64,000 bases of DNA, from the NCBI GenBank assembly GCA_045862955.1, contig BTVI01000003.1, positions 47,552 through 111,551 of the forward strand. The letters run 5' to 3'. Below, one piece after another: positions 8,336 to 11,760 of the stretch. The stretch is from Fimbriimonadales bacterium. Its GTDB lineage: Bacteria; Armatimonadota; Fimbriimonadia; Fimbriimonadales; JABRVX01. The position numbers and the translations under genes are program-made. The notes beneath the pieces were generated by a model. The model did not search any database, had not been told where the DNA came from, and worked only from the letters and a program-made list of their open reading frames with translations. Each line of letters starts with the position of its first letter. Position 1 is the first letter of the stretch.

Positions 8336-8387
8336 CAGCTAGCTTCCGCTACATGCCGTATCCCTCGCCACTGGGAGAGGTGGGTCT

Positions 8388-9190
8388 GTGCGAGGGTGCA
8401 GCCGTGCGGGGCCGTCATGCTGAGCCTGTCGAAGCATGCCCTCGCCATCCGCATGGTAGTGCCCGTCATGCTGAGCCTGTCGAAGCATGCTGCCTCCAGA
8501 CGCGCAGGTAGTAGCAGTAGAAGATCACGGGCGGCAATCGCCGTCATGCTTCGACAGGCTCAGCATGACGGCCCCGCACGGCTGCACCCTCGCACTGTCC
8601 CATCCTCTGCGGGTGTTGAGGGAAGCTCCTTTGGATAAGGGCGACCCGGAACCGACCACCGGTCGGGGACGAGGGCGGCTCAACCACGCTGTCCACGACT
8701 CTCGTCCCGACGACTCCGCATCCGTCCGCCAGAACTGGGATGCCGACCCTTCCGAGGCCGCTTCGCTTCGGGGGAAGGGGGGGCCGCGCGATTCCGCCTC
8801 GACGGCACGTGGGGTGATACGTTGGCGCCTGCCACTTACTCCCACCCCACCGACCCCTTATACCGTCATGCTGAGCCTGTCGAAGCATGCCCTCGCTATC
8901 CGCATGGTAGTATCCGGAGCCCGTCATGCTGAGCCTGTCGAAGCATGCTGCCTCCAGACGCGCAGGTAGTAGCAGTAGAAGATCACGTGCGGCTATCGCC
9001 GTCATGCTTCGACAGGCTCAGCATGACGGCGTGGGACGCTGCTGCTCACGCGTGGGATGCTGCTGCTCGCTAGGCGTGGGACGCCGCTGCTCACGCGTGG
9101 GATGCTGCTGCTCGCTAGGCGTGGGACGCTGCTGCTCACGCGTGGGATGCTGCTGCTCGCTAGGAGTGGGATGCTGCTGCTCACTAGGAG
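8388..9190. repeat. Intergenic repeat cluster: two 105-bp inverted-repeat elements (8465-8569, 8923-9027), two solo 25-bp arms (8414, 8865) and a 45-bp tandem array (9028-9190)
   Basis: GTCATGCTGAGCCTGTCGAAGCATG and its reverse complement read directly; unit GGCGTGGGACGCTGCTGCTCACGCGTGGGATGCTGCTGCTCGCTA x3 plus a partial copy. Confidence 0.92.
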
Positions 9191-10206: not shown

Positions 10207-10365
10207 ATGGAAATGGCGCTCAGTCTTACGAAGGAAGAGGCGTTTGCGCTGCTCGAGCTGGCGCTCGCCTCGGCGACGGAAGAGGACGAGGTGGGCGAGC
10301 GGGCATTGAGGAAGCTGGTAGAGGTATGCAAGCGGTACTTGAGCCAAGAGGTAGCGGTAGCCTAG
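10207..10365 (+). CDS. Small hypothetical protein, 52 aa (MEMALSLTKEEAFALLELALASATEEDEVGERALRKLVEVCKRYLSQEVAVA)
   Basis: Below the ORF-track size cutoff; purine-rich RBS (GGGGAGAGCGAGG); helical-looking protein sequence. Confidence 0.65.
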   Translation: MEMALSLTKEEAFALLELALASATEEDEVGERALRKLVEVCKRYLSQEVAVA

Positions 10366-10424
10366 GGACCGATGGGCCATCGTCCCCGAGGCTCCGGGGT
10401 AACCTCGAAGGGGAGGTGATCGGA

Positions 10425-10822: not shown

Positions 10823-10852
10823 TTGACTCCCGCCGAGGCGGCGTGGGATAAT
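10823..10852 (+). promoter_or_regulatory. Sigma70-type promoter
   Basis: TTGACT-N18-GATAAT with an extended -10 TGn. Confidence 0.7.
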
Positions 10853-10858
10853 CCCGTC

Positions 10859-11012
10859 ATCCCAGCGAAAAGGGGGTGGTGCAGAACGATGAGTAATTCA
10901 GATATGCGCCAGGAGGGTCGCAGGTTTTAGCGGCCGCCGGGCGCGGCGTCAGTGATGAACCGCGCCCTCCTGGCTGAAAACCTACTTCGCCCCGGACTTC
11001 GCTCCGGGGCGT
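10859..11012 (+). ncRNA. Putative structured small RNA or leader containing a 13-codon ORF (10889-10930, MSNSDMRQEGRRF)
   Basis: Own promoter, very long SD-like tract, several complementary segments, closing GC hairpin at 10988-11011. Confidence 0.5.
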
Positions 11013-11019
11013 TGTACTT

Positions 11020-11760
11020 ATGGCTCACGTTGTCGCTGTAATCCCGGCTCGAATGGGCAGCACGCGCTTCCCGGGAAAGCCGCTTGCTCTAATAGCCGGC
11101 AAGCCCATGCTGCAGCACGTCTGGGAGCGTGTCGTAGAGGCTCGTAGCGTAGACGAGGTGTACATCTCGAGCCCGGACACCGAGATTCTGGAGGTTGCCA
11201 CGCGCTTCGGCGCCGACGCGGTCCCTTCGAGCCCAGCCTGCCCCACCGGCACAGACCGGGTCGCAGAGGTTGCGGCATCCACGCTGGGTGACATCTACAT
11301 CAACGTGCAAGGCGACGAGCCACTGATTCGGACGCAAGACGTGGAGGCAGTGGTGCGCCCGATGTTGCGAGATAACCCACCCGACTCCGCCAGCCTCTGC
11401 TGTCCGTGCACCCTTCAGGAAGAAACCGATCCCAACGTGGTCAAGGTGGTGCTGGACGTGTGGGGGTATGCGCTGTACTTTTCCCGGTCGCAGGTTCCCT
11501 ATCCACGTTCGCGCCAGCAGCGCGCGCTGCGACACCTAGGCATTTACGCCTTCAATCGCGAAACGATCCTGCAGTTTCCGCACCTGAAGCAGACGCCGTT
11601 GGAGAAGTCCGAAGGGTTGGAGCAGCTTCGCCTGCTAGAGCACGGCTACACGATGGCGCTCACGCGGGTCCGGCGACCAGCAGGCCCTGCGGTGGACACC
11701 CCCGAGCAACTCGTGGAGGTCGAGCGGCTGCTATCCCGCGGGACTCGACGGTCGTCTTGA
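11020..11760 (+). CDS. kdsB: 3-deoxy-manno-octulosonate cytidylyltransferase
   Basis: IPARMGSTRFPGKPL, GTDR, NVQGDEP, HLGIY and LEQLR motifs. Confidence 0.95.
   Translation: MAHVVAVIPARMGSTRFPGKPLALIAGKPMLQHVWERVVEARSVDEVYISSPDTEILEVATRFGADAVPSSPACPTGTDRVAEVAASTLGDIYINVQGDEPLIRTQDVEAVVRPMLRDNPPDSASLCCPCTLQEETDPNVVKVVLDVWGYALYFSRSQVPYPRSRQQRALRHLGIYAFNRETILQFPHLKQTPLEKSEGLEQLRLLEHGYTMALTRVRRPAGPAVDTPEQLVEVERLLSRGTRRSS

Follow-up and report, generated by a model that had tools for sequence, protein, structure and literature searches.

A stand-alone small RNA gene of Armatimonadota in which two ribosome-binding tracts flank a 10-16-codon reading frame

Small RNAs with an extended Shine-Dalgarno sequence

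Few RNAs that lack a known role are retained as a single copy throughout a bacterial phylum, and the likely relatives of the RNA described here, Ms_IGR-5 and rreB, have been catalogued or described, yet are unexplained. In leader-peptide attenuators of the trpL type, a short open reading frame (ORF) overlaps alternative hairpins upstream of a terminator. The rreB and rreR genes of alphaproteobacteria are reported to specify RNAs of ∼165 nt with their own promoter and terminator, a 14-18-codon ORF and a varied genomic context, and their function is described as unknown (Hahn et al., PMC5711450). Both have an extended Shine-Dalgarno (SD) sequence, open in its 5' part and folded into a hairpin in its 3' part; the complementarity to 16S rRNA is perfect over 16-17 nt and runs into a GUG start codon (PMC5711450). 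By the same account, rreB binds the 30S subunit, is weakly translated and is stabilised by removal of its start codon. The consensus of Ms_IGR-5, a small RNA of Actinobacteria (Rfam RF02471), consists of AAGGAGGUGGU, a GAGGUGG strand that opens the helix, a rod, GCAGUCACC and a terminator, in the same order as in the RNA described below; M. smegmatis IGR-5 itself has been called validated but uncharacterised (bioRxiv 2021.12.14.472595). The CreT RNA toxins likewise combine an SD, a start codon, a mini-ORF and a hairpin and are reported to act at the RNA level; they are repressed by a CRISPR effector and lie in cas loci (PMC10097628), neither of which is seen for the present RNA.

The window analysed here is a stretch of 64,000 nt from a Fimbriimonadales genome (GCA_045862955.1, contig BTVI01000003.1). 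Its region 10823-11019, between a cytochrome c gene (end 10814) and a kdsB-type gene (start 11020), holds a stand-alone small RNA gene of ∼155 nt, the mini-mRNA, in which two ribosome-binding tracts, SD1 and SD2, flank a frame that is 10-16 codons long in the family. All features lie on the forward strand. Several parts had been proposed in an initial annotation of the sequence and are present: the sigma-70-type promoter at 10823-10852 (TTGACT, 18 nt, GATAAT, with a TG upstream) matches at 10 of 12 positions and is the one site of its kind over 2 kb, where shuffled sequence yields 0.3; the 13-codon ORF MSNSDMRQEGRRF occupies 10889-10930, with its UAG stop at 10928-10930; and the closing hairpin at 10988-11011 has 9 bp, is terminator-like and contains the only GGGG before kdsB. 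The promoter layout is the same in the three closest homologues, and transcription is predicted to start at ∼10858-10860. Together with a weak U tail, the closing hairpin forms an intrinsic-terminator-like element at 10988-11019; in three studies, RNA contigs span this element. Each of 200 shuffled sequences folds less well than the transcript (z = -4.0). Its neighbour outside the RNA, at 11020-11760, encodes a cytidylyltransferase of the kdsB type (PF02348, E 3e-49).

Like the rre genes, the mini-mRNA is a small transcript that stands alone and whose short ORF follows an extended SD. It differs in the duplex, which for rre comprises at least 16 perfect pairs reaching the start and here has mostly 10-14 bp, includes G-U pairs and ends several bases before the AUG; at the locus there are 12 bp, and 15 of 16 positions pair only if a mismatch is allowed. 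In place of a GUG start and a clade-conserved peptide, there is an ATG in 164 of 169 homologues and a peptide that is not conserved and shows no synonymous bias. Neither SD2 nor the internal-loop module discussed below is described for rreB in the portion of the rre report considered here (PMC5711450). Within the Ms_IGR-5/rre kind of ribosome-docking mini-mRNA, the present one is distinguished by the geometry of SD2, the loop module and the promoter swap.

Homologues and kinship

A BLAST search of 61 genomes returned three clear homologues, and model R1 was built from these and the locus copy. R1 detects the RNA in 71/151 genomes from the order, a tally that possibly includes the unpublished genome G036, and in 13 of 151 genomes of the phylum; the phylum tally rises to 43/151 with model R2 and 57/151 with R3, against 1/101 genomes of a control phylum with R3. 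The host genome has one copy, and the RNA is single-copy per genome, one genome having a second, partial R1 match. Among the weaker R3 matches, 19 of the 20 examined show the full layout and were kept. Because two copies in order family f4 were missed by the models and found by pattern, the tallies are lower bounds. Order family f5 gave 0/20 and 0/15 by the models and no convincing pattern match.

A pattern scan of GTDB gave 90 matches, of which 75 are genuine by eye among the 80 listed. Most record titles name Armatimonadota, the basis for assigning the RNA to this phylum, and three name other organisms. These three records (L095, L143 and L154, titled Synechococcus, uncultured archaeon and Methyloversatilis) hold genuine copies of the F-type defined below, of which the two tested score E about 1e-15 and 7e-15; they are probably mis-titled or mixed assemblies. 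The corresponding metagenome scan gave 111 matches, with 61 of the 80 listed above 45 bits. After removal of duplicates, the final set holds 169 distinct sequences, 124 from GTDB genomes and 45 from metagenomes. Matches dropped before counting were L076, L111, L120, L134 and L145 (chance matches, with R3 scores of 12-22 bits or none), L072, L073 and L213, and the 19 metagenome matches below 45 bits among the 80 listed. Invariance and control statistics drawn from this set are overstated, because the patterns demand conserved words and kin are not independent. One divergent metagenome contig outside the counts (L267; 30.5 bits, a 9-codon ORF and a full module) is possibly from another lineage. 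Viral contigs gave 4, 5 and 13 pattern matches, rejected at a best R3 score of 18 bits, and six short matches on plasmids were dismissed as chance.

The view that the RNA belongs to no known family is right at Rfam cut-offs, where neither the locus nor 20 homologue loci have a match and only chance-level hits appear with E up to 10. Below those cut-offs, a chain of homologues leads towards Ms_IGR-5. The mini-mRNA is probably a divergent relative of Ms_IGR-5 and not a member by score. The model RF02471 does not match the locus copy at E up to 10 and exceeds its 45-bit cut-off in 0/151 genomes of the phylum, with five Armatimonadota loci at 28.8-37.3 bits. The best of these, L342, encodes MESHSRGGCG and scores 25.7 bits with R3 and 56.3 bits with a hidden Markov model (HMM) of module-less copies; the same HMM gives module-bearing copies 16-36 bits. 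The chain tested thus runs from the locus copy through module-bearing copies, module-less copies and L342 to RF02471; its link from F-type to module-less copies is weak (HMM E 0.02 and worse), and every score along it owes part to SD words, possibly of independent origin.

The layout shared with Ms_IGR-5 comprises the extended SD, the GAGGUGG strand, the rod, a partner of the GCAGUCACC type and the terminator. The word GAGGTGGCTG occurs in 4/169 homologues and CAGT(T)CACC-type words in 13/169. In contrast, the UUUUAR/AUGAA module is not in the displayed Ms_IGR-5 consensus, and SD2 and the stop of F-type copies lie ∼9-12 nt further downstream than in Ms_IGR-5. Rfam CC2171 (RF01867), which has the same 5' end as the rre RNAs, matches one homologue with a score of 23.9 bits that comes largely from the SD. 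The identities 6S RNA and tmRNA were excluded, as both are found elsewhere in the host genome. A literature search that covered few subscription journals found no description of the mini-mRNA in Armatimonadota, no mini-ORF in IGR-5 and no SD at the stop of such an RNA; the main texts of two motif surveys do not mention Armatimonadota, and their supplements could list the motif unnamed.

The short frame and the structures around it

SD1, at 10869-10880, forms 12 bp, two of them G-U, with the free 3' tail of 16S rRNA. The 3' end of the host's own 16S rRNA is as the initial annotation assumed. The pairing energy with the free tail is -18.1 kcal/mol; among 2888 regions that precede the first ATG of a long ORF, it ranks in the top 0.14%. 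The proposed match at 15 of 16 positions also holds against the host's 16S rRNA, although the last three pairs face a predicted terminal 16S hairpin. The CAG extension of SD1 is not kept: position +10 is C in 60/124 homologues. The family consensus is AGGAGGUGRUG, with A/G swaps only at the two positions that face a U of the 16S tail. The duplex measures 10-14 bp in 159/169 homologues. In 162/169, the U of the duplex precedes the start by 8-12 nt, a distance exceeding the host-genome mode of 5-7 nt from GGAGG. A T-box-type pairing of UGGUG with a tRNA end was rejected: 13/124 copies read GGUGAU or GGUA and thereby lose UGGU. The Rfam T-box model has no match at the locus or in 20 homologue loci. 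The 13 variants retain 16S pairing.

The distal part of SD1 is masked by P1 (10877-10911), a weak hairpin that pairs 10877-10883 with 10905-10911 and loops out the AUG. Across homologues, the pairing of each copy's own strands exceeds that of cross-matched strands in 200/200 permutations in both subtypes, with a small effect. P1 and the rod have CCA in common.

The start codon and the length of the frame are conserved: besides the ATG starts there are two TTG, two ATA and one GTG, and the frame spans 10-16 codons in 168/169 homologues and is broken in one. The other two reading frames contain stops in 52/70 and 64/70 copies. In 92 copies, the F-type, the frame ends in UUU UAR (or CUU UAA) within the module, so that the stop is the module's own UAR, while the spacing from SD to start ranges from 3 to 10 nt; the 76 others either have a stop some bases before that point or lack the module. 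Synonymous changes make up 13/50 substitutions in the unpaired part, against a random expectation of 21%, and 7/28 in a second figure. The constant residues are each written with a single codon (TTT in 68/68 Phe, GGG in 60/60 Gly), as expected under constraint at the RNA level. Translation itself thus appears to be what is kept, since the peptide lacks synonymous bias and its constant residues are single-codon.

Two further coding possibilities were set aside. For a second ORF from the conserved AUGAA, the shared frame of the first three relatives is a coincidence, as its distance, frame and length vary freely. Stop read-through or frameshifting is unsupported, as the other subtype varies both in the identity of the stop and in its frame with respect to the module. 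Starts other than AUG appear in frame in a few loci: an apparent AUU, read by eye, in the Ms_IGR-5-like loci L343 and L344, and AUA, UUG or GUG in L059, L093, L097, L144, L188 and L345. AUU starts are policed by initiation factor IF3.

The second tract, SD2 (10911-10918), lies within the mini-ORF, 6 nt before its last sense codon, and is buried as the 5' strand of the rod. Its calculated pairing with the 16S tail reaches -8 kcal/mol or better in 135/169 homologues and is weak (> -6 kcal/mol) in 18/169; of two controls, 1013 ORF ends from the genome attain the former level in 12.5% of cases and shuffled ORFs in 13%. The distance to the last sense codon is 6 nt in 72/92 F-type copies and 9 nt in 54/76 others, so SD2 tracks the stop and not the start. 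Of the copies that contain GAGGT, 106/108 have the GGT of this word as a codon of the frame. The SD-likeness of SD2 could also serve fold-back on SD1 instead of 16S pairing.

The rod occupies 10908-10974, with a basal helix of 10908-10917 paired with 10965-10974. Covariation among homologues supports it: pairs are changed on both sides at 22/25 and 21/24 in two alignments, each of them fitted to the structure of the model, a result reached by 0/500 shuffles; slid controls are far lower. The median start of the rod is +21 and +17 from the AUG, just beyond the initiation toeprint reported at +16 (PMC13009471). Of the two competing folds in the initial annotation, the first is this basal helix. 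The second (10922-10931 with 10973-10983, plus 10939-10946 with 10960-10967) fares worse: all three pairings are indeed complementary, but the second fold lies 3.5 kcal/mol above the best fold, has a probability of 0.00 in the free ensemble and is not conserved, its 3' strand being altered in a same-genus genome and absent from two other close homologues. The rod can isomerise differently, into two local hairpins, one of which (10916-10921 with 10930-10935) loops the stop codon. Of the F-type copies, 58/70 can form this isomer, for which the median cost is +2.9 kcal/mol (+2.8 kcal/mol at the locus), and its own pairs give -12.8 against -10.3 ± 0.3 when cross-matched. An equivalent hairpin is found in 69/69 other module-bearing copies, a count made without a control. 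The symmetry of hairpin A may be left over from a duplication of the module in tandem.

Within the rod, an internal loop sets UUUUAR opposite NAUGAA. At the locus, this module spans 10923-10961, with GGUUUUAGC (10923-10931) opposite GUGAUGAACC (10952-10961), a UA/NAU loop and a closing U-G pair, and it has one copy in the host genome. Elsewhere it occurs in a minimal form with a UUCG cap, as a tandem duplicate or as a degenerate duplicate, or is absent. It is missing from 8/124 GTDB copies in a scripted test and from one broken copy, as well as from Ms_IGR-5-like loci, and therefore is not a universal core. Among L177-L184, L212, L226 and L228, and L182 and L185-L189, a tandem duplication of UUUUAG/AUGAA is seen in what appear to be several lineages, and a degenerate second copy of the unit in others. 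The duplication suggests a repeated protein-binding site. A search of the host genome found no second module site and no binding-protein candidate. The idea that the module mimics a site in an mRNA or rRNA was dropped, as the host-genome scan returned only the RNA itself; the rRNA contig holds one weak look-alike, past the 16S. Between the rod and the terminator, L069, L071, L080, L087, L094, L101, L166, L168 and L170 have an additional small hairpin whose loop is GUGAG and after which GGUAGGAA follows.

Expression, possible roles and neighbourhood

Upstream of the homologues, promoters appear to differ between lineages. Sigma-70-type promoter-like sites stand at a fixed distance in 16/86 homologues, and a GAAC-16/18-CGT pattern, which we take to be an ECF-sigma-like promoter, is found in 31/69 F-type copies against 8/204 control windows and 2.1 in shuffles. 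Six RNA runs contain part of the stretch. Of four analysed, three from different studies give contigs that start at 10869, 10869 and 10874 and end inside kdsB, and in the fourth a contig covers the upstream gene and ends at 10859. These contigs hint at a 5' boundary and at read-through; they carry neither strand nor level, their low depths (2.5-9.6) are no measure of level, and DNA carry-over is possible. At the locus, kdsB probably depends on read-through of the terminator, because it starts 8 nt after the hairpin, with no room for a promoter, and contigs cross the hairpin; none of the modelled states ties this read-through to the ORF.

The initial annotation had offered a stand-alone ribosome-binding small RNA as one of its readings, and this one has stood up: the gene is single-copy, has its own promoter and terminator and lies in varied neighbourhoods, and the reading is further backed by the conserved SD, start and frame and by the covarying rod. 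It is very probable that the mini-mRNA is stand-alone and translated and that the RNA matters more than the peptide. A further reading, to which we give slightly less than an even chance, is that it acts as a translation sensor, in which the passage of a ribosome would refold the RNA so that its shape and lifetime report ribosome activity. The steps, all drawn from geometry, would be as follows. A 30S subunit would dock on the open 5' half of SD1 and melt P1, with SD1 forming its 10-14 bp duplex over the free 16S tail; with the rod beginning at +17 to +21 from the AUG, the initiation complex would fit directly in front of it. Elongation would then unwind the basal helix and expose SD2, which would re-pair with the 16S tail as the stop codon enters the A site, so that the ribosome lingers. 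This re-anchoring would destroy the UUUUAR/AUGAA loop, probably a protein-binding site, and the unwinding would free a C/U-rich strand able to close SD1. When translation slows, the rod and its loop would persist.

Modelling with a ribosome at the stop gives an SD1 pairing of 0.83 at the locus. Over the 134 of 169 homologues covered, SD1 pairs with the 3' part in 26/75 and 32/59 copies with a ribosome at the stop, against 8 and 21 in the free RNA; closure of SD1 is a minority outcome in the F-type and partly a consequence of SD2 resembling SD1. A broader proposal is more doubtful and is offered tentatively: the mini-mRNA could be the Armatimonadota branch of an old, multi-phylum class of housekeeping RNAs that catch one ribosome as it initiates, with rre and Ms_IGR-5 as other members, in which a two-anchor hand-over at the stop would switch a protein-binding loop off. 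The class would then be an RNA gauge of ribosome activity, placed in some lineages under a stress-type promoter.

The homologues suggest testable design rules for such an RNA. From one subtype to the other, SD2 shifts along with the stop; the rod begins immediately beyond the footprint of the initiating ribosome; and lineages differ in having acquired, doubled or lost the small loop module. Should a terminating ribosome indeed be held by an SD lying 6-9 nt ahead of the last codon, the family is a natural test of internal-SD pausing, and the same case would bear on the fate of 30S subunits after termination. The RNAs IGR-5 of M. smegmatis and rreB of B. japonicum offer tractable hosts.

Other roles have been weighed against that of a translation sensor. 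Ribosome parking or titration, in which, under stress, the two anchors would hold one 30S or 70S particle between them and so dampen translation or keep nucleases away from the 16S 3' tail, is unlikely. It would account for the way SD1 covers the free 16S tail, for a frame about as long as one ribosome footprint and for the ECF-sigma-like pattern, and an SD oligonucleotide is reported to protect 16S rRNA from RNase R in vitro (PMC10901742). It is weakened by the host genome, where, at 97.6% completeness, no RNase R/II (RNB) domain was found, on which ground a shield against RNase R was rejected, and where HPF is present. It is weakened too by the report that 20-fold overproduction of rreB left growth unchanged; the same authors doubt simple sequestration, as ribosomes outnumber rreB (PMC5711450), and the depths of the RNA contigs at the locus, though not a measure of level, are low. 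Less probable again is a translation-activated base-pairing regulator, whose freed C/U-rich 3' strand would block the SD sites of other mRNAs: the basal helix does have an anti-SD-like 3' strand, which modelling of the terminating state shows released, but this strand covaries with its partner, has no fixed seed and, in some copies, has lost its anti-SD character together with SD2. The initial annotation's micropeptide gene, with the 10-16-residue product as the active part, is an improbable reading of a family in which start and frame are almost always kept and Gly-rich ends recur, as the peptide is without detectable selection: the synonymous share is close to random, conserved residues are single-codon, and the two subtypes have little in common beyond Met. 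In favour of a peptide, clade-level conservation is reported for RreB and RreR (PMC5711450).

The initial annotation had also raised a translation-coupled switch, or attenuator, for kdsB, which is now highly improbable and, as a conserved function, is unsupported by the neighbourhoods. A kdsB gene lies downstream in 12/34 first-round loci (72 of 122 listed flanking ORFs scanned), often 14-63 nt past the predicted hairpin and 8 nt past it here, and RNA contigs cross the terminator; yet the linkage is not kept, with kdsB in 0/20 more distant loci (42 of 75 flanking ORFs scanned), a Pfam-named gene pointing towards the RNA in at least 8/34 loci and a separate promoter-like site before kdsB in one close relative. 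Nor does the modelled RNA behave as a switch: the terminator is formed at 0.98-0.99 and the GGGG before kdsB is paired at 1.00 in all four modelled states (no ribosome, initiating ribosome, terminating ribosome and alternative fold forced). Unlike trpL-type attenuators, the mini-mRNA has no antiterminator, no regulatory codon run and no fixed downstream gene. Least probable, and only just conceivable, is a CreT-like RNA toxin that jams initiation; the ingredients are the same, and the CreT peptide is likewise irrelevant (PMC10097628), but the scanned neighbours include no cas gene, no rare-codon pair is conserved, and the mini-mRNA is a stable single copy behind a strong promoter and is present in RNA runs.

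Several observations were made alongside. In the host genome, CRISPR-like arrays are present on contigs C9, C51 and C72, and HPF is encoded in a 182-aa frame. In the window, 8381-9030 and 9028-9184 contain a 27-nt repeat in several copies and both orientations and a 21/24-nt tandem array; the 27-nt repeat is also found on five other contigs. At 10208-10400, just before the cytochrome c gene, an ATG-started open frame of ∼60 codons was noted by eye. In many close relatives (L040, L041, L044 and 15 further loci), a protein of 205-241 aa is encoded directly upstream of the RNA; it has an invariant GC in a lipobox-like motif and no Pfam match, and was dismissed as a candidate binder. In L071, L074, L168, L170 and L175, the gene greA has its own promoter-like site; between this and the greA SD, a hairpin formed by AAGCAC ... 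GUGCUU is conserved and is followed by a U-rich tail, and it may be a leader terminator like that of E. coli GraL. The gene greA also flanks the RNA in L064 and L065.
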